This document shows positions 13,041 through 46,060 of a DNA stretch of 64,000 bases, piece by piece. The notes under the pieces were generated by a model. The model ran no database searches. It was not told the origin of the DNA and saw only the letters and a list, made by a program, of their open reading frames with translations. Location of the stretch: the NCBI GenBank assembly GCA_029262335.1, contig JAJCZQ010000048.1, forward strand, positions 3,844 through 67,843, written 5' to 3'. The DNA is from Deltaproteobacteria bacterium (lineage in GTDB: Bacteria; Desulfobacterota_D; UBA1144; Nemesobacterales; JAJCZQ01). How positions within the stretch are numbered: position 1 is the first letter of the stretch; every line of letters starts with the position of its first letter. Both the position numbers and the translations under genes were made by a program.

Positions 13041-14297
13041 TCAAATCATGGTTTTTTGCAGCTCTTCTCTTAATTTATTTACTTCGTAGTATGGTTCACC
13101 TGCTTTTTTTGCATCTTCATAAAGTAACTCTAGTTCAATTAATACAGATTCAAGTTTCTTTCTGCTATCCGGATTTAAAAGGGCTTTTCTAGGAGTGAGT
13201 CCATCAAGTTGTTTAAGCGGTGTGTCAATCCACTTGCTGTAATATTGATCCAGTTCACTGTTAAACTGTTTACGGCTCCTGACCCCCTTTGGCAGTTTAA
13301 CGGATTTGGATTCATTCTTAACTGACAATTCGTTGAAATTTTTAGAACTGTCTTTCTTATGTTTTAGGAAACCCTTAAGTAATGTTTCAAGGTAGAATTT
13401 TGCACTGGCAAGAGTATTTAATGAGTTGCAGTTTACAATCATTTTATTGCCTTCTATTTCAATATGAATATCTGCCTCATTACCATCAAGGTTATTTAAT
13501 CTGAATATTATCAGATCATCGGATGTGTTGTTCAGTAGTGAAAAGTTTTTATTTTTACTGATAATTTCTATTATTTTTGATCTTTTAGTTAAGCTGTATT
13601 CAGATTTAGCTATTACAAAATCCTCTCCCTCCGGAGTCAGATAACGCGGGTGTTTAATAACATCATCAATATGGTTGCCAATAAGGTATCCAAAATCTTT
13701 TAAAAAGTTTAACTGGCTTTCTTGTTCACCATTTTCTATTTTGTACGCATTAAAATTAATCTTGAAATATTCCACAATTAAAGGTTTAAATACCAGGGGA
13801 TAAATTGAAACAAGGCTGAAGAAAAAGTTTTTGTCCTGAGTTCTTACAGGCCTGGCACATATAATATCTGTCAGGTTCAGATTGCTAGACACAATAGCAT
13901 CATGAACAACTGTTTCCTCACCTGAAAATATGTCAGACAAGATACAGAACTCACCTGGTTTTATGTCTTTAATTTCAAAATAACTGCGTGAACTATTTTT
14001 CCATTCTTTTAAGACATGTAATTCTTCAATGCTGATATTATCAACCGAATCTTTAACATACAGATCAATTACTCTTGAGTTATTATCAAAAGTTTTGAAA
14101 TCAAAAATAAACCAGTCTAAAAATCTGGCAAACAGTTTGTCATCAATATCGTCTTCTTCATTGTATACAATAATAGAATCGGGATTATCCTGCCAGATAT
14201 AAAAGGCTTCTGCCGTTTGTGAATGAATATGAGGCTGATCTACATATTCTGTGAGTTTGAGTCTGAGACTGCTTTCTATTTGATCGCTATTATCCAT
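13041..14297 (-). CDS. Hypothetical protein with a C-terminal DUF2384-like (Xre/MbcA/ParS toxin-binding-like) motif
   Basis: 418 aa. The N-terminal ~340 aa have no recognisable family. The C-terminal WIDTPLKQLDGLTPRKALLNPDSRKKLESVLIELE fits the W-x-tP-x3-L-x-G-x-TP-x3-L...V...L..iE pattern of DUF2384. Confidence 0.5.
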   Translation of the reverse strand: MDNSDQIESSLRLKLTEYVDQPHIHSQTAEAFYIWQDNPDSIIVYNEEDDIDDKLFARFLDWFIFDFKTFDNNSRVIDLYVKDSVDNISIEELHVLKEWKNSSRSYFEIKDIKPGEFCILSDIFSGEETVVHDAIVSSNLNLTDIICARPVRTQDKNFFFSLVSIYPLVFKPLIVEYFKINFNAYKIENGEQESQLNFLKDFGYLIGNHIDDVIKHPRYLTPEGEDFVIAKSEYSLTKRSKIIEIISKNKNFSLLNNTSDDLIIFRLNNLDGNEADIHIEIEGNKMIVNCNSLNTLASAKFYLETLLKGFLKHKKDSSKNFNELSVKNESKSVKLPKGVRSRKQFNSELDQYYSKWIDTPLKQLDGLTPRKALLNPDSRKKLESVLIELELLYEDAKKAGEPYYEVNKLREELQKTMI

Positions 14298-14311: not shown

Positions 14312-14782
14312 TTATTTATTACCTTTTGTATTAAATATCTTGTTAAGGGCTTCATTTCTGTAGTTGAATATAGTATCAAGATTATTGCGAATATATATAC
14401 TGTTTAACAAATTACCAAGTAATCCATAAGGTACGGCATAATTTATTAAATCTTTTGCAATTATTCCCTTGTCAATTTCACTGAAAAAATGCTGATGATG
14501 CCAGAGCCTGTATGGTCCTATTCTTTGTTCGTCTATAAAATAATAGGGTTTATTAATATGTGTAATTTCAGTTACCCAGGTTGTTGTGAAACCGCGAAAA
14601 GGAGTTACCTCGTAAGTAATTATCATTCCTTCGTAAAGTTCTTTTTCAATTTCAGATTTTATTTCTAATCCAAGACTGGGAGGAGTTATTAATTTCAGAT
14701 TGTTGGGATCAGAAAAAAAATCCCAGGATTCTTCAATTGTAATTGGTAAAAACTGCTCTCTATTAAGTGTAAATATAGACAT
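14312..14782 (-). CDS. SRPBCC (START/polyketide-cyclase/CoQ10-like) family protein
   Basis: 156 aa. Size and hydrophobic-pocket pattern fit the SRPBCC fold. Family-level guess only. Confidence 0.5.
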   Translation of the reverse strand: MSIFTLNREQFLPITIEESWDFFSDPNNLKLITPPSLGLEIKSEIEKELYEGMIITYEVTPFRGFTTTWVTEITHINKPYYFIDEQRIGPYRLWHHQHFFSEIDKGIIAKDLINYAVPYGLLGNLLNSIYIRNNLDTIFNYRNEALNKIFNTKGNK

Positions 14783-16143: not shown

Positions 16144-17232
16144 ATGAGACCGACCTGGGTAGAAATTGACCTTAATTCAATCAAAACAAATCTTGAAACC
16201 GTAAAATCTATTGTTGGTGATAATGTATCTGTCCTTGCTATTGTAAAGGCTGATGCATATGGGCATGGGGCAGTTACAGTTTCAAAAACACTAATAAATT
16301 CCGGAGTAGAAAAACTTGGTGTTGCAACCCTGGAAGAGGCTATGGAACTCAGGGAGTCAGGAATTAATCATCCTATTATTATACTTGGCGGTATTCAGAA
16401 AGAAGAACTTGATGATGTAATAAAACATGGCATTATCCCGACTATATACGATCTTAAAATACTGGAAGAGCTTTCAAATGCTGCTAAGAAGATAAATAAA
16501 AATTACAGTTATCATCTGAAGATTGATACAGGCATGAGCAGACTGGGCATTAAACATCAGGACCTGGACCTGTTTTTTGAAAAACATGCAAAGTACAACA
16601 ATCTCAGACTTGTAGGGCTATTTTCACATCTTTCAATGGCCGATGACATAAGCAGTGACTATACAGAAATGCAAATAACCCTCTTTCATGAATCTTTAAA
16701 AAGATTTATAGAACTAAATATAGAGCCTGAGTATCACCACCTGGCTAACAGTGCTGCAATTCAAAACTACCCGCTCTCACATGGCAATATGGTAAGGCCG
16801 GGGATTATGATCTATGGTGCTGGTGCATTTAATGGTTTTAAACTGTTGCCGGTAATGAAACTCAAAAGTAAGATCATACAATTAAAATTACATGAAAAAG
16901 GTACATCTGTAAGTTACGGAGGTACGTATATAACGGATAAGAAGTCGTTAATTGCTACAATACCGATCGGATATGCCGATGGTTATTTAAGAAGGTTGTC
17001 AAATAAAGCTTTTGTTTCCGTAAATGGTGAACGTGCCCCGGTAGTAGGCCGTGTTTGTATGGATTTTATTATGGTTGATGTAACAGAAATAAATAATGTA
17101 AATGTCGGGGATGTTGTTACACTATTTGGGGATGGAAATGTATCTCTGGATGATGTTGCTGACTGGGCAGAGACTATACCCTATGAAATAATGACTCTTG
17201 TCGGGAAAAGGGTCCACAGACTATTTTTATAA
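16144..17232 (+). CDS. alr: Alanine racemase
   Basis: 362 aa. PLP-lysine motif AIVKADAYGHGA; conserved C-terminal VGRVCMDFIMVDVT. Confidence 0.9.
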   Translation: MRPTWVEIDLNSIKTNLETVKSIVGDNVSVLAIVKADAYGHGAVTVSKTLINSGVEKLGVATLEEAMELRESGINHPIIILGGIQKEELDDVIKHGIIPTIYDLKILEELSNAAKKINKNYSYHLKIDTGMSRLGIKHQDLDLFFEKHAKYNNLRLVGLFSHLSMADDISSDYTEMQITLFHESLKRFIELNIEPEYHHLANSAAIQNYPLSHGNMVRPGIMIYGAGAFNGFKLLPVMKLKSKIIQLKLHEKGTSVSYGGTYITDKKSLIATIPIGYADGYLRRLSNKAFVSVNGERAPVVGRVCMDFIMVDVTEINNVNVGDVVTLFGDGNVSLDDVADWAETIPYEIMTLVGKRVHRLFL

Positions 17233-17242
17233 TGGCTTAACT

Positions 17243-18670
17243 TTGCGTATATATATAATATTAATAACCCTCTTACTTGTTACCATTTCAGATGCCTATT
17301 CCGGTGGCATAAATCTTGGCCCTCTTTACCATTCACCAGTTAATTCAAAATACGATAAAGAATTTACTGCATTAGGCCCCTTTATAATTTATAAAAAGGA
17401 TAAAGACTATAAGGAATTTGGTTTTAGACCTCTTTTCCATGATACGGTAAATAAGGAAAACAGGTCTAAGGAGCTTGAGTTTTTCTATCCTCTTACTTCC
17501 TACAAAAAAAAGGAAAACTTTTCATGGTTCCAGTACCAGTTTTTCTTTTTTGTATATAATACGGAAATTACACAGTCAGGTTATAAGAACAAGCGGATTA
17601 ATCTCTTTCCCCTGATATTTTATAACAACGAAGAAAATAGTGAAAATAACTATTTTGCTTTTTTCCCTGTTTATGGTGATATGAAAAACAAATTTACCAA
17701 GGACAGGATCAAGTTTTTTATGTTCCCGTTATATATGAAAACTGAAGCGGAAGGAGAGATAACGGATAGTTTTATGTGGCCGTTCATCAGCAACTACAGC
17801 GGGGAACTCGAAGGAGGAAGGTTTTGGCCAATCTGGGGAAACAGGGTTAATAATGTTAAACAGAGCAAGCAGGAATTTCTCTTTTGGCCTTTATATGTAA
17901 ATAAGGAAAGGGATTTTTACGGGGAAAAATTTTATTTCCGTTCATTCTTCCCGGTATATTCTGAGGCTTATGTCCATGGGGTATCCAATAGAGGCTATAT
18001 ATGGCCTTTTATTCAGCACACTGTGAACCATAATACCGGCAATGAACGCTGGGACGCTCCCTGGCCTTTTCTAAGTTTTACAAAAGGAGGAGTAGTTAAT
18101 CAGAAGAGAATATTCCCATTTTATGCCAGAGCTGAACGAGAAGACAATGACACTGATGGTTATATTTTGTGGCCAATTTACAGATACAAAAATATAAAAC
18201 TTGAAAGTTACCAGAGAAATAAAAAATCAGTATTACTTATACTTTATAAAGATGTAAGTTATGAACCTATAGTTGAAGGTGTTAAACCAAAACGAAAAAT
18301 AGACCTATGGCCTCTTTTTACTTATGAAAAAAATGCAGACGGAAAGAGCAATTTTCATATCTTTACGATATTTGAGCCTTTTATCCATTCTAATGACAGA
18401 CTTTACAGGAACTATGCTTCATTCTGGAGACTGTTTGTCTGGGAAAAAGACGAAGATGATGTTACACGAACATCATTTTTGTGGAATCTTGTAAGTTCTT
18501 ACGATAGTGAAGACCTTTTCGTTTTTGATGTAAGGCCTATAATACCACTTTTTAACGTTACAAAGTCAGAGAACTATAAGTCATGGACAGTTCTTGGCGG
18601 ACTTTTTGGATATAAGAAAAAGAATGAAAAAGATATTGTTAAATTTTTGTACATACCCATAGGTGTTTAG
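17243..18670 (+). CDS. Secreted protein built from ~18 tandem aromatic-Pro repeats (hh[W/F]P[L/I/F][Y/F]) with no recognisable family
   Basis: The ORF is open from 17198 (TTG) and overlaps the alr 3' end. TTG at 17243 gives the signal peptide MRIYIILITLLLVTISDAYS. Repeats FYPLTSY, LFPLIFY, FFPVYG, MFPLYM, MWPFIS, FWPIWG, FWPLYV, FFPVYS, IWPFIQ, PWPFLS, IFPFYA, LWPIYR, LWPLFT... recur at ~20-28 aa spacing. Confidence 0.5.
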   Translation: MRIYIILITLLLVTISDAYSGGINLGPLYHSPVNSKYDKEFTALGPFIIYKKDKDYKEFGFRPLFHDTVNKENRSKELEFFYPLTSYKKKENFSWFQYQFFFFVYNTEITQSGYKNKRINLFPLIFYNNEENSENNYFAFFPVYGDMKNKFTKDRIKFFMFPLYMKTEAEGEITDSFMWPFISNYSGELEGGRFWPIWGNRVNNVKQSKQEFLFWPLYVNKERDFYGEKFYFRSFFPVYSEAYVHGVSNRGYIWPFIQHTVNHNTGNERWDAPWPFLSFTKGGVVNQKRIFPFYARAEREDNDTDGYILWPIYRYKNIKLESYQRNKKSVLLILYKDVSYEPIVEGVKPKRKIDLWPLFTYEKNADGKSNFHIFTIFEPFIHSNDRLYRNYASFWRLFVWEKDEDDVTRTSFLWNLVSSYDSEDLFVFDVRPIIPLFNVTKSENYKSWTVLGGLFGYKKKNEKDIVKFLYIPIGV

Positions 18671-18683
18671 TTAAAATAAGAAT

Positions 18684-19442
18684 ATGTCAGAACTGTTTAT
18701 AACAACCGGCGGAATTATCAAACTCCTTTTTCAGGCCATCTACTGGTGCAGGGACGCTTACTGGAATATGGATAAAATCCTATACCAGATAACTGAGATC
18801 GGAAACAACACGCTGCCTGTTGCAACTCTGATTGCACTTTCCAGCGGAGCCGTGCTTTCACTCCAGTCAGGCCCTACCTTGGCAAGTTTTGGTATTGAGG
18901 AAAACCTTGGCGGCATAGTCGGGCTTTCCATGGTCAAGGAAATCGGCCCTGTCATGGCATCAATACTAATTGCAGGAAGAATGGGGTCCGCTATGTCAGC
19001 AGAAATTGGTTCTATGAGTGTTTATGATGAAATTGACGCACTAAAAACGATGAACATTAACCCAGTACGTTTTCTCGTTATGCCAAGGTTCCTCGCAATG
19101 ATCCTGGCACTTCCCGTGCTTGTACTATTTATGGATGTTGTAGGATGGTTTGGCGGGGCATTAGTAGCATCTGCTAATCCGGAAATTGGCCTTTCTTACC
19201 AGGTCTATTTCAGAAACCTTGCCGATTTCGTAACTGTAAAGGCAGTCTTTAATGGCCTTATAAAAGCATTTATTTTTGGAATTATTATCTCTATAGTTTC
19301 CTGTTATGTCGGCCTTCGTACAAAGGGAGGCCCAAGGGAAATCGGAAGATCAGTTACAAAAGCAGTTGTATTATCATTTATACTTGTACTTGTGTCTGAT
19401 TATTTTATTACAAGAATATTGTTATTTATGAATATTGATTAA
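18684..19442 (+). CDS. mlaE: Mla/Ttg2-type ABC transporter permease
   Basis: 252 aa multi-TM protein. MlaE-family conserved regions (LPVATLIALSSGAVLSLQSGP...GIVGLSMVKEIGPVMASILIAGRMGSA). Confidence 0.85.
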   Translation: MSELFITTGGIIKLLFQAIYWCRDAYWNMDKILYQITEIGNNTLPVATLIALSSGAVLSLQSGPTLASFGIEENLGGIVGLSMVKEIGPVMASILIAGRMGSAMSAEIGSMSVYDEIDALKTMNINPVRFLVMPRFLAMILALPVLVLFMDVVGWFGGALVASANPEIGLSYQVYFRNLADFVTVKAVFNGLIKAFIFGIIISIVSCYVGLRTKGGPREIGRSVTKAVVLSFILVLVSDYFITRILLFMNID

Positions 19443-19445
19443 AAT

Positions 19446-20246
19446 ATGAGCAATAACGGAAATTCACTTTTAAACTATCTTGAGAGCACCCCAATGGATC
19501 TAAGGGTCTCAAACCTTTACAAAAGCTTTCCGGATAAAGAGGTTCTTAAGGGGCTTGACCTTCATGTAGGCCCATCTGAGACACACGTAATACTTGGTAA
19601 GAGCGGTGTTGGAAAATCGTTGCTTTTAAAATGTATATGCGGCCTTGAGCCTTATAACAGCGGATCAGTTTTTTTGAATGGAGAGCAGGTTCTTTCAGAT
19701 AAAGATCTTGCAAAATACAAAATAGGCTTTGTATTTCAGTCATCTGCTCTTTTTAATTCTATGAGTGTAAGTGACAACGTGGGAATATATCTTCGTGAAC
19801 ACAGGCTTGTAAAGGATGAGGACCAATACCGAAGCCTTGTATCAGGAGCTCTTGAGCTTGTTGGACTCAGCGGTGTAGAAGAACAGTTTCCCTCTGAGCT
19901 AAGCGGCGGTATGAAAAGAAGAGTTGCAACAGCCAGGGTACTTGTCATGAGCCCCGATCTGATTCTGTTTGATGAACCTACAACAGGGCTTGACCCAATG
20001 ATGACGAAGACAATCGGTGAACTTATAGTCACATTAAAAGAAACTATTAATACAACTCAGGTTGTTGTTACACATGATATTGAGTTTGGTAAATATATCG
20101 CCGACAGGATTTCTATTATAAGTGAAGGTAAAATAATAGATGTAGGCGATCCAGGTAATCTTGAAAACAGCTGTAATGAAGTTGTAAAAAGTTTTATTTC
20201 TAAAAAATTTGATGAAAGAGAGGGAAAATATGAAGAACGAATATAG
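19446..20246 (+). CDS. mlaF: Mla/Ttg2-type ABC transporter ATP-binding protein
   Basis: Walker A GKSGVGKS, ABC signature LSGGMKRRVATAR, Walker B LILFDEPTTGLD. Confidence 0.85.
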   Translation: MSNNGNSLLNYLESTPMDLRVSNLYKSFPDKEVLKGLDLHVGPSETHVILGKSGVGKSLLLKCICGLEPYNSGSVFLNGEQVLSDKDLAKYKIGFVFQSSALFNSMSVSDNVGIYLREHRLVKDEDQYRSLVSGALELVGLSGVEEQFPSELSGGMKRRVATARVLVMSPDLILFDEPTTGLDPMMTKTIGELIVTLKETINTTQVVVTHDIEFGKYIADRISIISEGKIIDVGDPGNLENSCNEVVKSFISKKFDEREGKYEERI

Positions 20247-21120
20247 GGTAGGCCTGTTTTTTATGGTGGGCATAGTGGTCTTGGTATTTGTTATGGATTT
20301 CCTTGGGGACATTCCATTTTACTCAAACGATAAAACTGTTTTTACATATTTTGATTCACTTGGAGAGCTTAGAGAAGGAAACCCCGTAAAGATGGAAGGG
20401 CTTATTATTGGAAAGGTATCTTCTATATCACTTGAAGACCGGCAGCTTAAAGTGTCAATGGATGTGGAAAAAGACGCACCGATAAAAACAGATTCAATAG
20501 CATCTATTCAGATCGCAAGTCTCCTGGGTACGAGTTATGTGAATCTTACTTTCGGTTCTGCTGATACACCACTTAACAATGGTGATTTCCCTCTTGCAAG
20601 TATTGACCCTACTGATTTAAATAAAATTCTGACAAAACTTGATTCAGCCATTGGTTCACTTGATTCAGCGCTTGGAGCCTTTAGCGGGTTTGGCGATAAT
20701 GAAGATGGATTAAACAATATTGTTACAAATCTGGACACAGTGCTTGAAGACCTTGCAGAAGGCAAGGGTACGCTCGGTAAATTAATCAAAGACGATACTC
20801 TTTATAATGAAACGACTGTTGCAATGAAGAATATTAAAAATATTTCAGCAAAACTTAGTGATTCAAAAGGGACTTTCGGAAAATTAATTAACGACGATAC
20901 ACTTTATGTTGAAGCAACCGAAGCAGCTACAAACCTCAACGAGGTGCTTAAGAAAGTAAATGACGGGCAGGGGACTCTCGGTAAACTCGTAAATGATGAT
21001 ACTTTGTACTACGATACTAAGAATGCAGTTATAAAAGTTGAAAAAGGCGTTGATACACTTGAAGACCTTGCACCCCTGGGTACTCTCGGTGCAATTTTTG
21101 GTGTGCTGACTGTATTCTAA
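20230..21120 (+). CDS. mlaD: MCE-domain substrate-binding protein MlaD, with C-terminal GTLGKLxxDDTLY repeats
   Basis: The ORF is open from 20209; ATG at 20230 (MKNEYRVGLFFMVGIVVLV) gives an N-terminal TM anchor followed by an MCE domain (GNPVKMEGLIIGKVSSISLE...). There are three C-terminal repeats G[TQ]GT[LF]GKL[IV][KN]DDTLY. Confidence 0.8.
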   Translation: MKNEYRVGLFFMVGIVVLVFVMDFLGDIPFYSNDKTVFTYFDSLGELREGNPVKMEGLIIGKVSSISLEDRQLKVSMDVEKDAPIKTDSIASIQIASLLGTSYVNLTFGSADTPLNNGDFPLASIDPTDLNKILTKLDSAIGSLDSALGAFSGFGDNEDGLNNIVTNLDTVLEDLAEGKGTLGKLIKDDTLYNETTVAMKNIKNISAKLSDSKGTFGKLINDDTLYVEATEAATNLNEVLKKVNDGQGTLGKLVNDDTLYYDTKNAVIKVEKGVDTLEDLAPLGTLGAIFGVLTVF

Positions 21121-22065
21121 ATGCTGACAACTGAAGTTACACTTGCTGATATAGATTTTAATAACAGGGAGTATGAGTTATTTAGTTCCGAGCCCGGCTC
21201 AAACTTAGAGCAGTCTATCTCTTCTGTTGGCTTATTAAATCCTGTAAAACTGATAAAGAACACTAAAAATTATATTGTTTTAACGGGCTGGAAAAGATTA
21301 AATGTTTTAAAGAAATTGAATTATCCTTCAGTAGCCTCTCTGATTTATAAAGAGGATGAACTCTCACCTTTACAACTATTTACTTATATCTATATCGACA
21401 ATAAAGACAGGTTTACTGAATTAGAAAAAGCCGAACTTCTCTCTAAATTAATAAACTCAGACACATTAACTGAAGAAAAAATTAAAAGTGAATTTTTACC
21501 CATTCTTGGACTAAACCCTTCTTTAAATAATCTCAATAAATACAGATCTGTAGCACTTTTGGAAAAGGAGTTGAAAGAAGCATGTTTTAATGAACTTGTT
21601 ACATTTGAACAGCTGCATCTCCTTAGTGAAATAGATGATCCGAAATTCAGAACAGGGTTTTACAATCATTTCATTAAAAATAATAGATTCAATAACAATG
21701 AAACAAGGGACCTTTTAAAAGATGTGCAGGCAATTTGCATCAGAAGTTCACTGTCCATAGATAATTTGGCAAAACAAATACTAAAAGAAAAACAGGATAA
21801 AAATATAATACGGAAATTAGTAAAAGTGTTATGTTATCCAAGACTTACCGAAACCGAGCAGAAATATAATGACATAGTAAAGGAACTTAACCTTGGCACT
21901 TCATCAAGACTGGTAAACCATCCTTATTTTGAATTAAATGATCTTGAACTCAGAATTAAGTTTAATAATCAAAATGATTTAATATCTGAGCTGGAATCTT
22001 TAAAGAAATCTATTGATGAAGGTAAAATAGAAAAATTACTAAAACTGATAAAAGAAGGTATTTAG
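21121..22065 (+). CDS. ParB/Srx-fold N-terminal domain protein (non-canonical, no recognisable HTH); start is translationally coupled to mlaD
   Basis: 314 aa. Residues ~5-80 match the ParB N-terminal domain pattern (L.DIDFNNREYELF...LEQSISSVGLLNPVKLIK...YIVLTGWKRLNVLKKL...V.SLIY). The GERR arginine box is degenerate (GWKR). The TAA of mlaD overlaps ATG (TAAATG). Confidence 0.55.
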   Translation: MLTTEVTLADIDFNNREYELFSSEPGSNLEQSISSVGLLNPVKLIKNTKNYIVLTGWKRLNVLKKLNYPSVASLIYKEDELSPLQLFTYIYIDNKDRFTELEKAELLSKLINSDTLTEEKIKSEFLPILGLNPSLNNLNKYRSVALLEKELKEACFNELVTFEQLHLLSEIDDPKFRTGFYNHFIKNNRFNNNETRDLLKDVQAICIRSSLSIDNLAKQILKEKQDKNIIRKLVKVLCYPRLTETEQKYNDIVKELNLGTSSRLVNHPYFELNDLELRIKFNNQNDLISELESLKKSIDEGKIEKLLKLIKEGI

Positions 22066-22069
22066 CTCT

Positions 22070-22513
22070 ATGCGGGCATTAATCCAGAGAGTAAATGGTG
22101 CCGGGGCGGAAGTGGAAGGCAGGTTAGTTGGTGAGATAAAAGGGAAGGGCCTCTTAATTCTGCTTGGTGTTTCAAAAGAAGATACAGAACAGGATATTGA
22201 CTATCTTGTAAGAAAAATTCTTAATTTAAGAATTTTTAATGATGAAAATGATAAAATGAACCTTAGTATCCAGGACATTAAAGGTGAGTTGCTTGTAATA
22301 TCGCAGTTTACACTTTATGCGGACTGCAGGAAGGGCAACCGTCCATCCTATGATAAGGCCGCAGGTCCTGAACCTGCAAAAGAACTCTACGAGTTGTTTC
22401 TATCGAAAATTAAGAAGTCCGGATTAAAAGTAGAAAAAGGTGTCTTCGGGGCTAATATGCAGGTTAATCTTACAAACTCAGGCCCTGTTACTTTAATGCT
22501 TGAGAGTAAATAA
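22070..22513 (+). CDS. dtd: D-aminoacyl-tRNA deacylase
   Basis: 147 aa. MRALIQRV...LVISQFTLYADCRKGNRPSY...SGPVT is the canonical DTD sequence, including the SQFTL and GP motifs. Confidence 0.9.
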   Translation: MRALIQRVNGAGAEVEGRLVGEIKGKGLLILLGVSKEDTEQDIDYLVRKILNLRIFNDENDKMNLSIQDIKGELLVISQFTLYADCRKGNRPSYDKAAGPEPAKELYELFLSKIKKSGLKVEKGVFGANMQVNLTNSGPVTLMLESK

Positions 22514-22587: not shown

Positions 22588-23040
22588 ATGAAAGTAGTTG
22601 CAAAGCATCCTACTGTCCGAAGGGACTATTTAATAGAGGAAGTTTTTGAAGCAGGTATTGTCCTCAAAGGCTCTGAAGTTAAATCCCTAAGGGCAAGTAA
22701 TGTGAGTATAAAAGAGAGTTTCGCGATGTTAAGAGACGGTGAGGTCTTTTTGATGAACAGTTATATTGCGCCGTATCTACAGGCAAATGTACACAATCAC
22801 GATACCACAAGGGAAAGGAAACTACTTTTAAATAGAAGAGAAATAAATAAATTAATAGGTAAGACCCATCAGAAGGGATACACGTTGATTCCTACAAGGC
22901 TGTACTTTAAAAACGGAATGGCTAAGCTTGAACTGGGCCTGGCAAAAGGTAAAAAAACGCAGGACAAAAGAGACGATATAAAACGTAAAGAAGCAAAAAG
23001 AGAAATGGACAAGGCAATAAAACGAAATTCAAGGTATTAA
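22588..23040 (+). CDS. smpB: SsrA-binding protein
   Basis: 150 aa. ...AGIVLKGSEVKSLR...LLLNRREINKL... with a basic C-terminal tail. Located directly upstream of the tmRNA. Confidence 0.9.
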   Translation: MKVVAKHPTVRRDYLIEEVFEAGIVLKGSEVKSLRASNVSIKESFAMLRDGEVFLMNSYIAPYLQANVHNHDTTRERKLLLNRREINKLIGKTHQKGYTLIPTRLYFKNGMAKLELGLAKGKKTQDKRDDIKRKEAKREMDKAIKRNSRY

Positions 23041-23053
23041 AAACTAAACAAAA

Positions 23054-23406
23054 GGGGGCGTACTGGCTTCGACGGGAAATGAGATAGCTTATGCTGCATG
23101 TCGAGCTTATTAACTCGTAAAACTGATTAACGCACAATAAGTGCCGAACCAATTAACGCACTCGCAGCCTAAATAGAGCTGTGACGACTGATGAGACTCT
23201 GTCTGTAGGTTTTATTAAGTCGCAATAAATACGGACTGGCCATGAAGTTTTTCCAGGTTGGCGGATTGGCGAGATTTTAGACCAGGATAGCAGTGCATGA
23301 CCCGCCTGTAGGTATTTGCACTGTGAAACTTAAAAGCAGGATAAACATGTAGAGGCTGAGTAAGGCTCTTTCGCGGACCTGGGTTCGATTCCCAGCGCCT
23401 CCACCA
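23054..23406 (+). ncRNA. ssrA: Transfer-messenger RNA (tmRNA, SsrA)
   Basis: The 5' GGGGGCGUACUGGCUUCGACGGG... and 3' ...GGACCUGGGUUCGAUUCCCAGCGCCUCCACCA ends form the tRNA-like acceptor/T-arm with CCA. The internal tag reading frame ends ...GCC GAA CCA AUU AAC GCA CUC GCA GCC UAA (AEPINALAA-stop) at 23143-23172. It lies immediately after smpB. Confidence 0.9.
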
Positions 23407-40969: not shown

Positions 40970-41689
40970 TTGGTTAAATTATTGAATAACAGCTATATAA
41001 AGATAGATACTCTTTCAAAATCCTTTGGCTTTAAAAAAGTATTAGACGGTATTAATTTACAGTTTGAAAAAGGTGATTTTGTAACTTTATTTGGCCCTAA
41101 CGGGGCCGGTAAAACTACGTTAATAAGAATATTATCTACTATTTTAAAAAGTGATGAAGGAAATATTACAATATCTGATTATGACATTAAAAAAAATGTG
41201 TCGGATATAAGAAAGATTATTGGCCTACTATCTCATGAAAATTTTCTTTATCAAAATCTTACAGTTACCGAAAATCTCATATTTTTTGCAAAGCTGTATA
41301 ACGTTAAAAATTCTGAAGAATCCATATCCTATAAACTCAATAAGATTGGTATATATTCAAAAAGAAATGAACTGATAAGAAATTTATCAAGTGGCATGAA
41401 ACAAAGGGTCTCTATTGTGAGATCTTTAGTGCATGATCCCGAAATAATATTTCTTGATGAACCATTTGTAGGATTGGACATTGAAGGGTCCGAATATCTC
41501 CTTGAATTGTTTAGCGAATTTAAAAAAGAAAATAAAACAGCTTTAGTTACAACACATGATCTTAGACTTGGGCTACATGAATGTACAAAAGTTGTTGTAA
41601 TAAATAAAGGACAGATAAGATTTAATGAAATTATTGAAAATGTAGATGTTAATAGTTTCGAATCTACATATAAATCTTTGATTGCCTGA
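40970..41689 (+). CDS. ccmA: Heme exporter ATP-binding protein CcmA
   Basis: TTG start (alternative TTG at 40982). Walker A GPNGAGKTT, signature LSSGMKQRVSIVR, Walker B IIFLDEPFVGLD. Located directly upstream of ccmB/ccmC. Confidence 0.75.
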   Translation: MVKLLNNSYIKIDTLSKSFGFKKVLDGINLQFEKGDFVTLFGPNGAGKTTLIRILSTILKSDEGNITISDYDIKKNVSDIRKIIGLLSHENFLYQNLTVTENLIFFAKLYNVKNSEESISYKLNKIGIYSKRNELIRNLSSGMKQRVSIVRSLVHDPEIIFLDEPFVGLDIEGSEYLLELFSEFKKENKTALVTTHDLRLGLHECTKVVVINKGQIRFNEIIENVDVNSFESTYKSLIA

Positions 41690-41765
41690 TAGCGAATCCT
41701 AAATTTAAATATTTATTATTTCGCTTTCATTCCAAAGAATTTATTTTATAATAAACCACTTAAAA

Positions 41766-42437
41766 ATGAACACCCTTGCAGCCGTTCTCTGGAAAGATAT
41801 AATTAATGAACTTCGTACTAAAGAGATAGTCCTTTCTATGGCTGCATTCTCTGTAGTACTTGTTGTAATATTTAACTTCAGTCTTGTTATCAATAGAGAC
41901 AATATCGGACACCTTGTACCGTCGTTTCTCTGGATTTCAATTATTTTTGTCGGAACACTGGGGCTTAGCAGGACTTTTGCCATTGAAAAAGAAAACAGTG
42001 CAATAACGGGTATTTTAATCAGCCCTATCGACAGAAGTATGCTGTATTTTGCAAAAGTCCTTAGTAATTTGCTTTACGTGTTAATTGTGCAGTTTTTACT
42101 GCTGTTTTTATTTCTTTTTATGTTTAATATAAATTTGACCGGCAATATACTGATGCTGATTATTGTAATGGTATTGGGAGCTGTTGGATTTTCAACACTT
42201 GGTACACTTTTTTCAACAATGGCAATAAATACAAAGCTCAGAGAGCTTTTGCTTCCGGTAATACTTTTTCCTGTAATTATTCCGGTAATAATAAATGCGG
42301 TAAAAGCAACATCTTTAATATTCAGCGGCGGCGGGTATACGGAAATTAAACCATTTCTGAACATTTTAATAGCTTTTGATATCATATTTCTTGTAACATC
42401 AGCTCTGGTATATGAGTTTGTTGTAGAGGAGTCTTAA
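41766..42437 (+). CDS. ccmB: Heme exporter permease CcmB
   Basis: 223 aa. Six-TM ABC-2-type permease with CcmB-like conserved region (...SRTFAIEKENSAITGILISPIDRS...), placed between ccmA and ccmC. Confidence 0.8.
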   Translation: MNTLAAVLWKDIINELRTKEIVLSMAAFSVVLVVIFNFSLVINRDNIGHLVPSFLWISIIFVGTLGLSRTFAIEKENSAITGILISPIDRSMLYFAKVLSNLLYVLIVQFLLLFLFLFMFNINLTGNILMLIIVMVLGAVGFSTLGTLFSTMAINTKLRELLLPVILFPVIIPVIINAVKATSLIFSGGGYTEIKPFLNILIAFDIIFLVTSALVYEFVVEES

Positions 42438-42444
42438 AAGTTTT

Positions 42445-43107
42445 ATGAAACTATTATTTTATATAATTACTTTGATATTGATGCTCGTTTCTACATATGC
42501 AGCATTTATTTATGCCCCAACTGAAGTAATTATGGGACATATACAAAGGATATTCTATTTTCATATGGGGACGGTATGGGTAGCAACAATAGCTTTTATT
42601 ATTGTTTTTGTTGCTAGTATTTTATATCTGATCAATGGTAAAAGAAAGTGGGATGTGCTTGCATATACTTCTGCTGAATTAGGCGTTTTTTTTATAACAT
42701 TAACTATTATCACGGGAAGTATCTGGGCAAAACCCGTATGGGGTACATGGTGGACATGGGACCCTCAGCTAACTACTACATTTATACTCTGGATACTGTA
42801 TATTGTTTATCTGTTAATCAGGGCAAATTCTGGTTACGATGAAAAGAAAGCTAAATACTCAGCGGTATTTGCAATAATTGCTTTTATTGATCTTCCTCTT
42901 GTATATATATCTGCAAGGGTAATGAGGGGCATTTCTCCGGTAGTTTTCGGACCTGGTGGTGGTGGAATAGAACCAAAAATGTTAAATGCACTTTTAATAA
43001 CACTTGTTTCCTTTACATTACTATTTATTTTATTATTAGTCGAAAGAATAAAAATTGAGAATCTAAAGTATCAGATTAATAAACTAATATATACGGAGAA
43101 CAATTAG
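42445..43107 (+). CDS. ccmC: Heme exporter protein CcmC (heme handling protein with WWD domain)
   Basis: 220 aa. Trp-rich WWD motif WGTWWTWDPQLTT. The two conserved His residues needed for heme ligation were not individually located. Confidence 0.85.
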   Translation: MKLLFYIITLILMLVSTYAAFIYAPTEVIMGHIQRIFYFHMGTVWVATIAFIIVFVASILYLINGKRKWDVLAYTSAELGVFFITLTIITGSIWAKPVWGTWWTWDPQLTTTFILWILYIVYLLIRANSGYDEKKAKYSAVFAIIAFIDLPLVYISARVMRGISPVVFGPGGGGIEPKMLNALLITLVSFTLLFILLLVERIKIENLKYQINKLIYTENN

Positions 43108-43229
43108 TGGAATATCTATTCTGGGGACATGTATCAGTCTGGCTTTTTATTGCTGTATACGCCCTTTATTTAAAAAATACTTCAGACAATTTGAGCCGGA
43201 AACTAAAAGAACTAAATAACAAGGATTAA
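43107..43229 (+). CDS. ccmD: Putative heme exporter protein CcmD (small single-TM protein)
   Basis: This ORF is absent from the six-frame track. GTG overlaps the ccmC stop (TAGTG). 40 aa: (M)EYLFWGHVSVWLFIAVYALYLKNTSDNLSRKLKELNNKD, i.e. one TM helix plus a charged tail, in the position CcmD occupies between ccmC and ccmE. Confidence 0.5.
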   Translation: MEYLFWGHVSVWLFIAVYALYLKNTSDNLSRKLKELNNKD

Positions 43230-43238
43230 TATACAGAT

Positions 43239-43658
43239 ATGCTTAAGGGAAAATTAAAATTTATTATAGCTATTATTATAATTGCCGGAACCATTAGTTA
43301 CCTGGTATTTTCCGGAGTAAAAGACACGATGGTTTATTACCTGACTATCGACGAACTCCAGGCAAAAGTCCCGGAGGTTTACGGCGAAAGGGTAAGGGTT
43401 TCCGGTATTGTAGTTCCGGGGACTATAATAAAAGATAAAAACGGCAATATTGAATTCCGAATTACAGATGGTGAGAACAACATTGATGTAAAATACAGTG
43501 GTATTATTCCTGATATCTTTGCAGATGATGTTGAAGCAGTGGTTGAGGGAAATTATTCTCAACAGAATGTTTTTAATGCCGATGTACTCCTGGCCAAATG
43601 TCCTACTAAGTATGAGTCTGATGAGAAGTTGTATGAGTCGCATAAGGAAAGCAGTTAA
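43239..43658 (+). CDS. ccmE: Cytochrome c-type biogenesis heme chaperone CcmE, CxxxY variant
   Basis: 139 aa. N-terminal TM anchor, OB-fold core (RVSGIVVPGTI...FRITDGEN), heme-binding motif LLAKCPTKYES. Cys121 is encoded at 43599-43601; canonical CcmE has His-x3-Tyr at this position. Confidence 0.85.
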   Translation: MLKGKLKFIIAIIIIAGTISYLVFSGVKDTMVYYLTIDELQAKVPEVYGERVRVSGIVVPGTIIKDKNGNIEFRITDGENNIDVKYSGIIPDIFADDVEAVVEGNYSQQNVFNADVLLAKCPTKYESDEKLYESHKESS

Positions 43659-45652
43659 TGTATCAAATAGGTAATGTCTGTGTCTATTTTGCATTTTTCC
43701 TGTCACTCTATACCGTAGCAGCTTCTCTGATAGGTGCCAGATACAGGAACAGAGATTTAATAGAGAGCGGAAGAAATTCTGCTTTATCCATATTTATACT
43801 ATTAATTATAGTTTCAGCATCTTTGGTCTATGAGCTTATTAATACAAATTTTAATCTCAGATACGTTGCCTTAAATACAAGTACCGACCTTCCGACAATA
43901 TACAGGTTTACCGCATTATGGGCAGGGCAGGCAGGATCGCTTCTTTTATGGTGTCTAGTCCTTTCACTCTTTTCTTCTATAGTTGTAATGTTTTCAAATA
44001 AAAGGGACATTGATTATCAGCCATGGGTGGTTGTAGTTTTATATACAGTACTGGCATTTTTCCTATACCTGATAACATTTGTTGAAAATCCTTTTGATCT
44101 ATTACCATTTACACCAAACGAGGGCAGGGGCCTTAACCCAATACTTCAAAATGGCTACATGGCAATTCATCCTGTCACTTTGTATCTGGGTTATGTCGGC
44201 CTTACAATACCTTTTGCTTTTGGTATGGCCGCATTAATTAGCGGAAGATTAAATGATTCATGGATAAGACAATCAAGAAGGTGGACAATTCTTGCCTGGA
44301 CATTTCTTAGCGTCGGGCTTTTACTTGGTGCAAGATGGGCATATCTTGAACTTGGCTGGGGCGGTTATTGGGCATGGGACCCTGTTGAAAATGCAGCTTT
44401 TATGCCATGGCTTACAGCAACAGCATTCGTACATTCCGTGATGATCCAGGAAAGGAACGGTATGCTTCGCAAATGGAACATTATTTTACTTATAACCACA
44501 TTCTTCCTTACTTTACTTGGTACTTTTATTACACGTAGCGGCATAATTTCCTCTGTTCATTCATTTGCACAGTCAGATATTGGGCCATTATTCCTTGGAT
44601 TTATTGCCTTTGTATTAATTTTTTCATTTGGGATATTCCTTTACAGAATTAAAGAGCTTGAAAGTGAAGAAAATTTTGATTCAATTATATCGAGGGAAAG
44701 TGCATTTATTTTTAATAACCTGCTATTTCTCGGTGCAGCATTTGCTGTTTTTCTCGGAACTATATTCCCGATTATATCTGAAGCCGTTACTGGTGAGAAG
44801 ATACTTGTCGGCCCCCCATTCTTTAACAAGGTAAATGTTCCAATTGGGCTGGTCCTTATATTCCTTATGGGTGTAGGCCCGCTTATTTCATGGAGAAAAG
44901 CATCACCTGAAAATCTTAAAAAGAATTTTCTACTTCCCATGATAGTGGCAGTATGTGTAGGGATTGTGCTATTTATTTTAAATATAAGAGATATTACAGC
45001 GCTACTCAGCTTCTCATTATGCGGGTTTGTAGTTGCAACAATTGTCACTGAATTTTACAAAGGCGTTTCCGTACGTTCATCCAGGGGTGAGAATATTGTT
45101 GTATCGTTAACTACTATGATATCCCGAAATAAAAGGCGTTACGGCGGTTATATAGTCCATTTAGGGGTTGTCCTTATTGTTATAGGTATAACAGCATCAT
45201 CAACTTTTAATTCTGAAGTAGAAGCTACTTTAAATACAGGTGAATCTTTTAAAATCGGTGAATATGAATTAACTTTTGAAAAACTGGAAACCTATAAAAA
45301 CGATGCAAAAAATGGAACAAAAGCAGTACTGCTTCTCTCAGCCGGCGGCAGAACTATTGACACCGTATATCCTGAGAAAAATATATACAGGTACGAGGGC
45401 AACAGAGAAATAAACCAGGAAACAGAAGTATCTTTGAGGTCAACATATAAAGACGACCTTTATATAATACTCTCGAACGTAAACAGCAATACAAATGCAA
45501 CATTCAGGGCAATGATCAACCCAATGGTTAGCTGGATATGGGCAGGTGGTATAGTTGTTCTTTTTGGAGCATTGATTACCATGATGCCAAAGTTCGCTAA
45601 AAGAAGATCAAGCGTTACCGAAGAAATTGGTTTAAATGCTGAAAAAGCATAA
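43658..45652 (+). CDS. ccmF: Cytochrome c-type biogenesis protein CcmF (heme lyase component)
   Basis: 664 aa multi-TM protein. WWD-type Trp-rich motif WGGYWAWDPVEN. ATG overlaps the ccmE stop (TAATG). Confidence 0.9.
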   Translation: MYQIGNVCVYFAFFLSLYTVAASLIGARYRNRDLIESGRNSALSIFILLIIVSASLVYELINTNFNLRYVALNTSTDLPTIYRFTALWAGQAGSLLLWCLVLSLFSSIVVMFSNKRDIDYQPWVVVVLYTVLAFFLYLITFVENPFDLLPFTPNEGRGLNPILQNGYMAIHPVTLYLGYVGLTIPFAFGMAALISGRLNDSWIRQSRRWTILAWTFLSVGLLLGARWAYLELGWGGYWAWDPVENAAFMPWLTATAFVHSVMIQERNGMLRKWNIILLITTFFLTLLGTFITRSGIISSVHSFAQSDIGPLFLGFIAFVLIFSFGIFLYRIKELESEENFDSIISRESAFIFNNLLFLGAAFAVFLGTIFPIISEAVTGEKILVGPPFFNKVNVPIGLVLIFLMGVGPLISWRKASPENLKKNFLLPMIVAVCVGIVLFILNIRDITALLSFSLCGFVVATIVTEFYKGVSVRSSRGENIVVSLTTMISRNKRRYGGYIVHLGVVLIVIGITASSTFNSEVEATLNTGESFKIGEYELTFEKLETYKNDAKNGTKAVLLLSAGGRTIDTVYPEKNIYRYEGNREINQETEVSLRSTYKDDLYIILSNVNSNTNATFRAMINPMVSWIWAGGIVVLFGALITMMPKFAKRRSSVTEEIGLNAEKA

Positions 45653-45676
45653 TCTTAACTTTTATCAAAAAACATT

Positions 45677-46042
45677 ATGAATCTGATTGTAATAGTAGTA
45701 CTAATTTCAATATCAATCTCTATCTATATTTTATTCCCGATAATAAAGAAATATTTGATAAACACTGAAGTAGAGATTGATAATTCAGGCACAGACCCTG
45801 AATATAAAAATTTAATAAGAGAAAAAGACCAGCTCCTTAACGAAATAATGGATATAGACCTGGACTATGGATTAGAAAAACTCGGAGATAAAGATTATAA
45901 GGAATTAAGGCAGAAATACCGTTTAAAAGCCGCAGGGGTTATAAAGAAAATAGAAAATTATGAAAAGCTTCATAACACTGAAATTGATATGGTTCTAAGT
46001 AAAAAAATTGATGACGAGATTGAGAATTTAAAAAGAAAATAA
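45677..46042 (+). CDS. Small single-pass membrane protein with a cytoplasmic coiled-coil tail; the tail motif is shared with the next gene
   Basis: 121 aa. N-terminal TM (LIVIVVLISISISIYILFPII) followed by KK, so the tail is predicted cytoplasmic. The tail NLIREKDQLLNEIMDIDLDYGLEKLGDKDYKELRQKYRLKAAGVIKKIE aligns to the C-terminus of the 46061 gene. Confidence 0.5.
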   Translation: MNLIVIVVLISISISIYILFPIIKKYLINTEVEIDNSGTDPEYKNLIREKDQLLNEIMDIDLDYGLEKLGDKDYKELRQKYRLKAAGVIKKIENYEKLHNTEIDMVLSKKIDDEIENLKRK

Positions 46043-46060
46043 AAAAGTAAATCATTTTTC

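Follow-up and report, generated by a model that had tools for sequence, protein, structure and literature searches.

What does the gene between alr and mlaE encode, and what does it do there? We looked at this question in a 64,000-nucleotide stretch of DNA from a Deltaproteobacteria bacterium (contig JAJCZQ010000048.1; the window), in which mlaE, mlaF and mlaD are preceded on the same strand by a gene for a hypothetical protein, hereafter X. Of the steps in the MCE/Mla pathway, the one by which lipids pass to or from the outer membrane is understood least. No MlaA, MlaC or PqiC-like gene was found in the annotated loci or among the 45 scanned window ORFs of at least 147 aa, which bears out the first-pass annotation that mlaA and mlaC are not recognisable beside mlaEFD.

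Gene X and its neighbourhood

The genes considered here are the following.

16144..17232, plus strand: alr (alanine racemase), 10 nt upstream of X
17198..17242, plus strand: in-frame upstream extension of X from TTG 17198, overlapping the 3' end of alr
17243..18670, plus strand: coding sequence of X, a predicted β-hairpin-repeat protein (475 aa plus stop; likeliest start TTG 17243)
17243..17302, plus strand: putative Sec-type signal peptide of X, read from the sequence (residues 1-20, MRIYIILITLLLVTISDAYS)
18684..19442, plus strand: mlaE, ABC permease (PF02405, E 2e-73; TIGR00056, 224.9 bits, above cut-off)
19446..20246, plus strand: mlaF-type ABC ATPase (PF00005, E 6e-31; MlaF model NF008809, 152 bits, below cut-off)
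20230..21120, plus strand: needle-type mlaD (PF02470, E 1e-16; AlphaFold2 and alignments)

On the plus strand, the uninterrupted reading frame of X runs from 17198 to 18670 (490 aa). Its first 35 nt overlap the 3' end of alr (stop at 17232), and the distance from the stop of X to the start of mlaE is 13 nt, all as described earlier from the letters. Since homologues begin at the equivalent of 17240-17243 and 15 polar residues would otherwise precede the signal peptide, the 17198..17242 extension is probably not translated. The TTG at 17243 agrees with the homologue N-termini; a 476-aa relative 89% identical to X (P0001) starts one codon earlier. From TTG 17243, X begins with MRIYIILITLLLVTISDAYS followed by GG, where an n-region and an h-region of 13 residues lead up to a cleavage-type site, A-x-S. 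The AlphaFold2 (AF2) model has a helix at residues 2-17 and low pLDDT at 14-21. The signal peptide of the window X (ending ISDAYS before GG) is without a lipobox Cys. A secreted protein starting at TTG 17243 had been proposed, and this is in line with the relatives, as 229 of the 257 full-length ones have a hydrophobic N-terminus and some relatives have lipoboxes. A scan for promoters and terminators gave counts no higher than chance.

We then looked at the loci of X homologues, using a 10-sequence alignment as the query of the genome scan. In 81 of the 84 testable loci, mlaE lies less than 450 nt downstream of X on the same strand and is followed by mlaF and mlaD; in two further loci, mlaEFD is found immediately upstream of X. 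These loci come from at least six phyla (Dadabacteria, Desulfuromonadales, Verrucomicrobiota, Methylomirabilales, Binatia and Acidobacteriota), and the genes flanking the X-mlaEFD block are completely different from one phylum to another. Such adjacency in the same order, with flanks that are not shared, is hard to explain without functional coupling. The suggestion that X could be an uncharacterised envelope partner of this Mla system is thereby strengthened. That annotation had named two outcomes that would speak against it, a known family for X or a lack of conserved mla linkage, and neither was found. Upstream, alr is present in 26 loci and is a conserved neighbour in the Dadabacteria clade only. 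An HpnN-like RND lipid exporter gene (TIGR03480, 588 bits) lies directly upstream of X in 30 loci, and this neighbour in Verrucomicrobiota hints at envelope lipids, including hopanoids.

The X family is large, with at least 2,725 clusters at 50% identity in a profile search (202 homologues by word-indexed search), and every named member is called "hypothetical protein". Searches of the literature on the X family, on Mla in PVC bacteria and Desulfuromonadales and on HpnN-Mla links found no description of X. Lengths are 454-552 aa between the 5th and 95th percentiles. Among the unusual relatives, a 1,767-aa protein (P0266) is built of sharp 91-aa super-repeats, and another (L005) is a standalone homologue; neither lies beside mla genes. 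In a look for domain fusions, no Pfam domain was found in ten longer relatives, and the N-terminal extension of one relative (P0122) is a low-complexity acidic/Pro spacer.

Predicted fold of X and its conserved hairpin tips

The AF2 model of X is confident and all-β (pLDDT 90.3, pTM 0.74), with two features to be distinguished.

17303..18667, plus strand: mature all-β region of X, 44 short antiparallel strands in ~22 hairpins (AF2 and strand map)
18374..18427, plus strand: sole helical insert of X, residues 378-395, ...DRLYRNYASFWRLF (AF2 secondary structure)

The strands are 5-8 residues long and the turns are of two sets, one forming a Φ-Φ-[W/F]-P-Φ-[Y/F] tip and the other short and polar. 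X is thus modelled as a continuous ribbon of ~22 β-hairpins, in which the tip turns are predicted to line one edge as an unbroken hydrophobic strip of aromatic character, both sheet faces being otherwise polar. In the helical insert, E378, N384, N390 and W395 are nearly invariant, and its covariation with the N-terminal strands is weak.

The tip motif is well supported by the sequences. All 15 motifs listed in the first-pass annotation were recovered in X, and the strict form [WF]P[LIVFM] occurs 12 times, compared with 0.99 ± 0.96 (maximum 5) in 5,000 shuffles. The period given there, 20-28 residues, has to be corrected, as the motif recurs every 16-21 residues in the regular core. The alignment of 343 relatives shows 19 columns of tip Pro, and in 17 of these the conservation is at least 94%. 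Around the tip Pro, positions -2, -1, +1 and +2 are 87-99% hydrophobic, and the distal strand positions (beyond ±3 from the tip) are 9-37% hydrophobic on both sheet faces. Four to five degenerate hairpin units are without Pro, giving the total of ~22 hairpins (44 strands). Aromatic residues make up 21% of the window X and 18.5% of the family on average. A 5-hairpin super-repeat of ~95 aa is also visible in X, weakly.

Residue covariation in the family was analysed by mean-field DCA (343 sequences, Meff 265). Hairpin pairing around both turn types was backed by the couplings. Past neighbouring hairpins, the signal was at noise level, and barrel closure is not demonstrable from it. The few long-range couplings involve residues flanking invariant prolines, even Pro-Pro columns; because of this position beside invariant prolines, they are probably artefacts of alignment or composition. 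Two more detailed models, one of X as four closed barrels and one with a helix (384-397) inside module 1, were dropped as unproven, the long-range covariation being noise or probable artefact.

No match to X was found in Pfam or NCBIfam at E ≤ 1, nor to segments of X and distant homologues at E ≤ 10. PDB sequences gave none either (E ≤ 1-10), and Foldseek gave no match with TM above 0.2 (normalised to X). The early description of X as a β-rich repeat fold of no known family fits both these searches and the all-β model. The best local Foldseek matches (probability 0.85-1.0) are MORN, CPAP G-box/TCP10, the OspA central sheet and the YD/Rhs shell.

Partner MlaD and possible roles of X

The operon encodes a needle-type MlaFED/MCE ABC transporter, made of a permease, an ATPase and a TM-anchored MCE protein. 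The mlaD frame is open from TTG 20209 and homologues favour ATG 20230. The protein consists of a TM helix, an MCE domain, ~145 residues of helix with three GxGTLGKLxxDDxLY repeats and, at the C-terminus, a hydrophobic tail. In the AF2 monomer these parts correspond to a TM helix at 3-26, an MCE β-domain at 34-125, helices at 130-273 and a hydrophobic helix at the C-terminus. The confident parts are the TM helix and the MCE domain only, and since pLDDT in the needle is below 50, its length was not taken from the model. The Helical_needle family PF28544 is precomputed on all 120 listed MlaD homologues, including 93%-identical ones; it was not among the matches in an hmmscan of the window MlaD itself. 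Among X-linked partners the needle has 3 to 6 repeats. The end of MlaD is of particular relevance.

21073..21117, plus strand: MlaD C-terminal tail, candidate docking peptide (APLGTLGAIFGVLTVF-COOH)

Five partners from different phyla (Dadabacteria to Verrucomicrobiota) all have the P, L, G and terminal F of this tail, and 65 of 72 X-linked MlaD proteins end in F. Its helix prediction by AF2 is of low confidence. Rather than docking in X, the tail could itself enter the outer membrane, or six chains could make up a tip of their own like that of mycobacterial Mce1.

Lipobox-like motifs occur in 23 of the 257 full-length X relatives (~9%), two of which (P0034 and P0144) lie within the same X-mlaEFD operon. 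Asp at +2 was seen in none of the 15 lipobox-like relatives listed. From these motifs, some X orthologues are predicted to be lipid-anchored. At the other end of the protein, 11 of the 257 relatives finish with F, 3 with W and 1 with Y, and many have polar C-terminal extensions. The lipobox-like motifs, the strands polar on both faces and the lack of a C-terminal β-signal speak against an integral barrel and favour a protein close to the membrane and exposed to the periplasm. That X is located at the outer-membrane end of the periplasm we infer only from analogy, its signal peptide and the relatives with lipobox-like motifs.

Being beside MlaE-MlaF-MlaD in at least six phyla, X is a strong candidate for the missing outer-membrane-side partner of the transporter. 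We give an even chance to X being a fourth, unnamed subunit of needle-type MlaFED and a new class of docking partner on the outer-membrane side. [quoted passage not shown] Such docking would join the lumen of the needle to the outer membrane and so allow lipid insertion or extraction. With an unrelated fold, X would then fill the role of the PqiC-like lipoprotein ring (PA3214/PqiC) or of MlaA plus MlaC of Proteobacteria. More tentatively, X may represent a fourth structural class beside the porin-like barrel, MlaA-like and PqiC-like ones. As such it might be a ribbon of five-hairpin modules with its tips forming a hydrophobic track or channel that catches the Phe-terminated MlaD helix and passes lipids into or out of the outer membrane, namely phospholipids and, at loci with a neighbouring hpnN-like pump, hopanoids; we hold this detailed version to be possible rather than probable.

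Other roles were weighed against docking. MlaC is missing from the operon and the window, the signal peptide of the window X is without a lipid anchor, and X has an extensive aromatic, hydrophobic surface together with a weak local Foldseek likeness to lipid-wrapping β-belts such as ApoB100 (E 4e-3, TM 0.16). X might accordingly do the job of MlaC as a soluble periplasmic lipid carrier or chaperone, taking up lipid on its aromatic strip and ferrying it between the tip of MlaD and the outer membrane, and not be a fixed docking site. This is unlikely, as a long helical needle like that of the partner MlaD substitutes for a shuttle in characterised systems (PMC10665443, PMC13631591), the lipobox-like motifs in 23 of 257 relatives point to a membrane-fixed position, and no enclosed lipid pocket is demonstrable in X. 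We think it quite unlikely that X is a periplasmic sheath, spacer or peptidoglycan-crossing collar for the MlaD needle with no contact with lipid or the outer membrane. Its elongated, repeat-built, all-β form with polar sheet faces, the conserved operon linkage, a repeat number that varies among relatives (up to the 1,767-aa P0266) and the presence of alr, a peptidoglycan-precursor gene, in the Dadabacteria operon would suit such a part. But the near-invariant hydrophobic tips and the conserved hydrophobic tail of MlaD would be left unexplained, and the length of X is tight (454-552 aa) while the needle ranges from 3 to 6 repeats. It is very improbable that X is an adhesin-like or cell-wall-binding repeat protein unrelated to lipid transport and merely co-transcribed with mlaEFD: its nearest local structures are indeed generic hairpin repeats (MORN, OspA, CPAP G-box, YD shell), and L005 and P0266 are not mla-linked, but the same-order adjacency in 81 of 84 loci across phyla with unshared flanking genes speaks against it.

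An integral outer-membrane β-barrel like TGD4 or LptD, giving Mla access to the outer leaflet, is the least probable: an all-β protein with a signal peptide, a high share of aromatics (21% in the window X, 18.5% in the family) and a size that we take to be near that of chloroplast TGD4 would suit one, but X has 44 strands of just 5-8 residues, neither sheet face is consistently hydrophobic past 2-4 residues from the tip, the rarity of a terminal F (11 of 257) and the many polar extensions mean that there is no β-signal, some orthologues have lipobox-like motifs, and no outer-membrane-barrel Pfam family matches X. A barrel was one of the options in the first-pass annotation; a classical transmembrane barrel is unlikely.

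If X is the docking partner, the long MlaD proteins of PVC bacteria, Dadabacteria and Desulfuromonadales, "barrel-less" as they are, would have their route to the outer membrane explained, and the fold of X would be one without a solved relative. For the PVC proteins, which have no β-barrel, unidentified proteins were invoked in a phylogenomic study of 2023 (PMC10665443), which gave no further explanation for barrel-less long MlaD in PVC and other phyla. Known outer-membrane partners of MCE systems take three forms only, and several systems have none known (PMC13631591, 2026). With an unannotated family of at least 2,725 clusters, almost always in an mlaEFD operon, this open question becomes experimentally tractable, and naming the family would label thousands of "hypothetical proteins" in Pfam and NCBI.

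Comparison with known folds and outer-membrane partners

The MORN, CPAP G-box/TCP10, OspA and YD/Rhs structures resemble X in being a continuous antiparallel meander with a period of ~20 residues. Unlike X, they are without the Φ-Φ-[W/F]-P-Φ-[Y/F] tip and without Mla linkage. For MORN, YD, choline-binding and other named hairpin repeats, there was no Pfam match to X, and TM was 0.2 or less. A further likeness is to the β-flower fold and the Tubby-like clan CL0395. The β-flower unit has ten strands, ~96 aa and five-fold symmetry (Durairaj et al. 2023, PMC10584680), which compares with the weak ~95-aa 5-hairpin super-repeat of X and the sharp 91-aa one of P0266. Members of the clan are closed, shallow barrels with 8-12 short strands and a hairpin symmetry that is 4- to 6-fold. 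Both folds have short antiparallel strands in hairpin repeats, with short loops on one side and aromatics at the strand edges, and the Foldseek neighbours of both are annotated as MORN. X is unlike the β-flower in that all its turns are tight and separate closed barrels are not evident. The semi-conserved β-flower hairpin-tip motif [DNEQ]xxG occurs 6 times in the window X; in the X family it is found at only 3 of 10 conserved Gly columns, those where position -3 is D/N/E/Q in 50% of sequences or more. The β-flower families PF21784-PF21786 gave no match at E ≤ 10, whether the query was full-length X, one of its four modules, any of three distant homologues, or P0266 cut into segments of one and two units, and there was no Tubby structure among the top 50 PDB matches of X (Foldseek).

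Among lipid transport components, MlaA and MlaC can be likened to X as accessory non-cytoplasmic parts that link MlaFED with the outer membrane. Their folds are unlike the all-β model of X, MlaA being an α-helical ring of the inner leaflet and MlaC a lipid-binding protein of α/β type; PF04333 (MlaA) and PF05494 (MlaC) did not match X. The long MlaD needle at X loci points to a bridge rather than a shuttle, unlike the MlaA/MlaC pathway.

The long MlaD of Veillonella parvula and other diderms ends in a fused 10-stranded C-terminal barrel, which is reported to be completely absent from PVC and FCB MlaD (PMC10665443). That barrel and X are both proposed outer-membrane anchors working without MlaA and MlaC (PMC10665443 for the barrel). 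Unlike in V. parvula, MlaD at X loci ends in a hydrophobic tail of ~15 residues and a separate 475-aa protein is encoded alongside.

PqiC of E. coli and PA3214 of P. aeruginosa, the latter from the PA3211-PA3214 operon for MlaE, MlaF, an MCE needle protein and a lipoprotein, offer a close analogy of role. In both types of system, one operon holds an MlaE-like permease, an ABC ATPase and a single-MCE needle protein of ~300 aa with a conserved C-terminal peptide, and the accessory protein is exported to the periplasm, some X orthologues being predicted lipoproteins as well. The proteins themselves differ. X is modelled as a 475-aa monomeric all-β hairpin repeat, whereas PqiC and PA3214 protomers assemble into an octameric ring; the X gene is upstream of mlaE and the PqiC-like gene downstream of the MCE gene; and most X copies have a plain signal peptide where PqiC-like lipoproteins have a lipobox. 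PF03886 (PqiC-like) did not match X at E ≤ 1, nor its segments or distant homologues at E ≤ 10. In the PA3211-PA3214 system, the C-terminal peptide of a 312-aa MCE needle protein docks in a hydrophobic groove of the outer-membrane lipoprotein (PMC13631591). By analogy, X would dock the C-terminal peptide of its MCE partner at the outer membrane as PA3214 does.

Gene and operon of X

Genomic context is the strongest evidence on X, the secreted β-hairpin-repeat protein. The genes concerned are the following.

17198-18670, +, reading frame of X, from TTG 17198 through its stop codon at 18670
First gene after X, mlaE (PF02405, E 2e-73)
Second gene after X, mlaF-type ATPase gene
Third gene after X, mlaD/MCE gene

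The reading frame was found as the first-pass annotation had described it, overlapping alr (stop at 17232) by 35 nt when read from TTG 17198 and separated by 13 nt from the ATG that opens mlaE. Since TTG 17243 is where homologues start (P0001, an 89% identical relative, does so one codon earlier), the alignments make a product of 475 aa from this codon most likely. Its N-terminus, MRIYIILITLLLVTISDAYS|GG, is a textbook Sec signal peptide without lipobox. The intergenic gaps in X-mlaE-mlaF-mlaD are 13, 3, and -17 nt, and no promoter or terminator signal above chance was detected in this operon of the window. For mlaD, the ORF reaches back to TTG 20209, but ATG 20230 is where its homologues begin to align (region 20209-20246); either start overlaps the mlaF 3' end, by 38 or 17 nt respectively, suggesting translational coupling of the two genes.

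We then looked at 86 loci encoding an X homologue, 84 of which had flanks long enough to test. In 81 of these 84, the start of mlaE follows X on the same strand at a distance below 450 nt, and mlaF and mlaD come next; mlaEFD is directly upstream of X in two (L041, L054), and one (L005) contains no mla genes. The operon is flanked by alr in 26 Dadabacteria-type loci and by a TPR protein gene in 11 Desulfuromonadales loci, and X by an RND transporter gene (900-1,070 aa) in 30 loci from Verrucomicrobiota, Binatia, and Acidobacteriota. That the X-mlaEFD linkage outlasts this rearrangement of the outer flanks indicates that X is functionally coupled to mlaEFD. The transporter scores as HpnN-like (TIGR03480, 588 bits, below the equivalog cut-off) and also matches the BstA sterol-transporter model (290 bits). 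This RND/MMPL gene immediately precedes X, in the same orientation, in L001 (3209-5944) and 29 other loci (e.g., L042, L046, L053, L055, L067, L070), and the resulting five-gene cluster hpnN-like-X-mlaE-mlaF-mlaD of the Verrucomicrobiota, Binatia, and Acidobacteriota loci unites two lipid-transport systems. On one metagenome scaffold (L006, 5599-7298), mlaF and mlaD are broken into several short called genes, probably owing to frameshifts or assembly errors and not to real gene decay.

Other features of the window were recorded as follows.

13041-14297 and 14312-14782, -, two adjacent ORFs (418 and 156 aa) upstream of an MFS transporter gene
21121-22065, +, 314-aa ORF beginning at the base after the mlaD stop
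22070-22513, dtd, between the preceding ParB_N-like ORF and smpB
22588-23040, +, smpB
23054-23406, +, tmRNA gene (RF00023, 165 bits), directly downstream of smpB
40970-47476, +, cytochrome c maturation cluster (CcmA-like ATPase, CcmB, CcmC-like, CcmF), then a 471-aa cytochrome c protein
50264-50830, +, ECF-type sigma factor
50832-51302 and 51305-51796, +, two small ORFs after the sigma factor gene

The 314-aa ORF gave a weak ParB_N/nucleoid-occlusion-like match (PF02195, E 0.038; TIGR04285, E 8e-8, far below cut-off), and the same gene comes after mlaD at several Dadabacteria loci (L002, L011, L012, L016-L018, L025, L030, L087). The 418- and 156-aa ORFs had no Pfam match at E ≤ 1e-5. The two small ORFs, also without Pfam matches, may be anti-sigma components.

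Hairpin repeats and aromatic-proline motif

The recurrent aromatic-proline motif reported by the first-pass annotation is far above chance: 5,000 shuffles yielded 0.99 ± 0.96 strict [WF]P[LIVFM] sites (maximum 5), and X has 12; its spacing, announced as 20-28 residues, was corrected to a measured 16-21. When 343 relatives were aligned, 17 of the 19 Pro columns were conserved at 94% or more, and positions -2, -1, +1, and +2 around them were hydrophobic in 87-99%.

A confident AlphaFold2 model of X was obtained with a 36-sequence alignment (mean pLDDT 90.3, pTM 0.74). Its signal helix is followed by 44 β-strands, each 5-8 residues long, and by one helical insert among them (378-395). Mapping of the motif onto the modelled strands placed [W/F]-P as the two-residue turn of one hairpin set; the opposite turns are short, polar, and often x-G. 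Mean-field covariation analysis (343 sequences, Meff 265) recovered antiparallel pairing around both kinds of turns, with covarying pairs across the Pro tips (e.g., 155-168, 305-316, 210-223, 250-259) and across the polar turns (e.g., 143-159, 199-212, 279-290). Therefore, as modelled and as seen in covariation, the chain is one continuous antiparallel meander. Past neighbouring hairpins, covariation in these 343 sequences is at noise level and gives no three-dimensional arrangement of the ribbon. The polarity gradient follows the strand direction and does not separate one sheet face from the other: both are hydrophobic over the 2-4 residues nearest the Pro tip and polar beyond, a pattern unlike that of a transmembrane barrel. 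The aromatic strip may form an exposed surface or the protein's own core.

Foldseek searches against PDB and BFVD returned local resemblance only, with no TM-score above 0.2 (normalised to X), to the teneurin YD shell, MORN, OspA, CPAP G-box, BamB, sortilin, and ApoB100, all of hairpin-repeat or propeller type. The hairpins also show a higher-order period of five, unit profiles being most alike at a five-unit offset (~95 aa); in P0266, a relative of 1,767 aa, a sharp super-repeat of 91 aa comprises five ΦP hairpins (Φ, hydrophobic residue). This period recalls the five-fold β-flower, with ten short strands in 96 aa and aromatic strand edges (PMC10584680). The three β-flower Pfam families did not match X, even with single modules, and the [DNEQ]xxG tip motif of the β-flower is only weakly present; the likeness is taken as a resemblance and not a classification, closure into barrels being hypothetical.

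Size and distribution of the family

X had no sequence match in Pfam, NCBIfam, or PDB. A word-indexed search found 202 relatives; when 1.84 billion representatives were searched with a full profile, 2,725 passed E ≤ 1e-3, 999 of them E ≤ 1e-30. Every name given at source is 'hypothetical protein'. In an assembled set of 347, the 5th and 95th percentiles of length are 454 and 552 aa, and ten longer relatives carry no recognisable additional domain. A one-genome-per-species scan yielded 277 relatives, the best 80 of which belong to Candidatus Dadabacteria (filed under Thermodesulfobacteriota at NCBI), Desulfuromonadales, Verrucomicrobiota (Pedosphaera, Limisphaerales), Methylomirabilales, Binatia, and an Acidoferrum MAG; the window genome is itself Dadabacteria-like, with 35% G+C. 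P0266 (JGI 3300071358, 270-kb contig) consists of ~17 tandem super-repeats and stands alone: the genes around it are of glycoside-hydrolase and TonB type, and none nearby is an mla gene. It follows that the hairpin repeat extends beyond the Mla-linked family and has no set limit to its copy number.

Needle-type MlaD and the likely place of X in the envelope

In the window MlaD (~296 aa), a TM helix and an MCE domain are accompanied by a stretch of ~145 residues with predicted helical structure and by a terminal hydrophobic segment. Its predicted helical part is interrupted by three GxGTLGKLxxDDxLY repeats (residues ~170-275, window 20740-21060); in a comparison that took in the MlaD of L001-L004, four to six copies were counted outside the window lineage. 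Needle length thus seems to change in steps of whole repeats. PF02470 and PF28544 ('Helical_needle') are precomputed on all 120 MlaD homologues among the matches listed. The last ~15 residues, (D/E)x(G/A)PLxx(L/I/V)Gxxxxx(L/T)xF-COOH, are kept from Dadabacteria to Verrucomicrobiota, and Phe is terminal in 65/72 X-linked MlaD. No MlaA, MlaC, or PqiC-like gene was found at any annotated X locus or among the 45 scanned window ORFs of at least 147 aa.

Among full-length relatives of X, the N-terminus is hydrophobic in 229/257, and 23 have a lipobox-like motif (e.g., LSGC, MSAC, VSGC), with no Asp at +2 in the 15 examples listed. Two relatives with a lipobox-like motif, P0034 and P0144, sit in an X-mlaE-mlaF-mlaD operon, the surroundings of P0034 matching those in the window in every other respect. 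The proteins do not as a rule end in an aromatic residue (F in 11/257), and polar C-terminal extensions are frequent. Together with short strands modelled as polar on both faces, these features point to a protein that is exposed to the periplasm and retained at a membrane, and they argue against a barrel inserted by BAM.

In P. aeruginosa PA3211-PA3214, the MCE protein PA3213 (312 aa, helical needle) threads an outer-membrane lipoprotein ring; its C-terminal peptide docks in a hydrophobic groove of the ring, and deletion of this peptide abolishes binding (PMC13631591). Known outer-membrane MCE partners are a porin-like barrel, MlaA-like or PqiC-like, and several MCE systems lack an identified one (PMC13631591). 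A Veillonella study described long MlaD proteins across diderms, those of PVC and FCB being without C-terminal barrel, and invoked 'as yet unidentified proteins' (PMC10665443). Given this docking precedent and this gap, we propose that X would be the outer-membrane-side partner of needle-type MlaFED. Its aromatic-proline strip would be a hydrophobic surface receiving the MlaD tail and, lying at or in the inner leaflet, would couple the needle lumen to the outer membrane. Of these elements, the operon linkage, the export signal, the fold class, the hydrophobic strip, and the conserved MlaD tail are shown, and an outer-membrane location, a contact of X with MlaD, lipid handling, and the substrate are inferred. 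The hpnN-like neighbour suggests that the lipids handled would be envelope lipids including hopanoids. The mlaEFD linkage (81/84), the export signal, and the absence of a known-family match support the cautious first-pass idea of an envelope partner; homologue L005 and the giant P0266, both without mla linkage, count against the outer-membrane-side reading, as would an aromatic strip that is the protein's own core.

X could instead be a soluble MlaC-like carrier, a role that is hard to square with the lipobox variants and a needle-type MlaD, or a purely structural collar around the needle, a role that does not account for the invariant hydrophobic tips. Strand length, face polarity, and the missing β-signal contradict an integral barrel. 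A passenger gene of unrelated function is contradicted by the conserved adjacency.

X as the proposed outer-membrane-side partner offers the MCE/Mla field a concrete, widely distributed candidate with a testable interface for a stated gap. The closest characterised systems are P. aeruginosa PA3211-PA3214 and E. coli PqiABC. The suggestion of hopanoids is tempered by the proteobacterial case: there, the companions of HpnN are MlaA-, MlaC-, or lipocalin-like proteins (PMC12324291), and X, unlike at the hpnN-like loci described here, is not among them. MCE/Mla is a known system, of which X is an unrelated and undescribed component.
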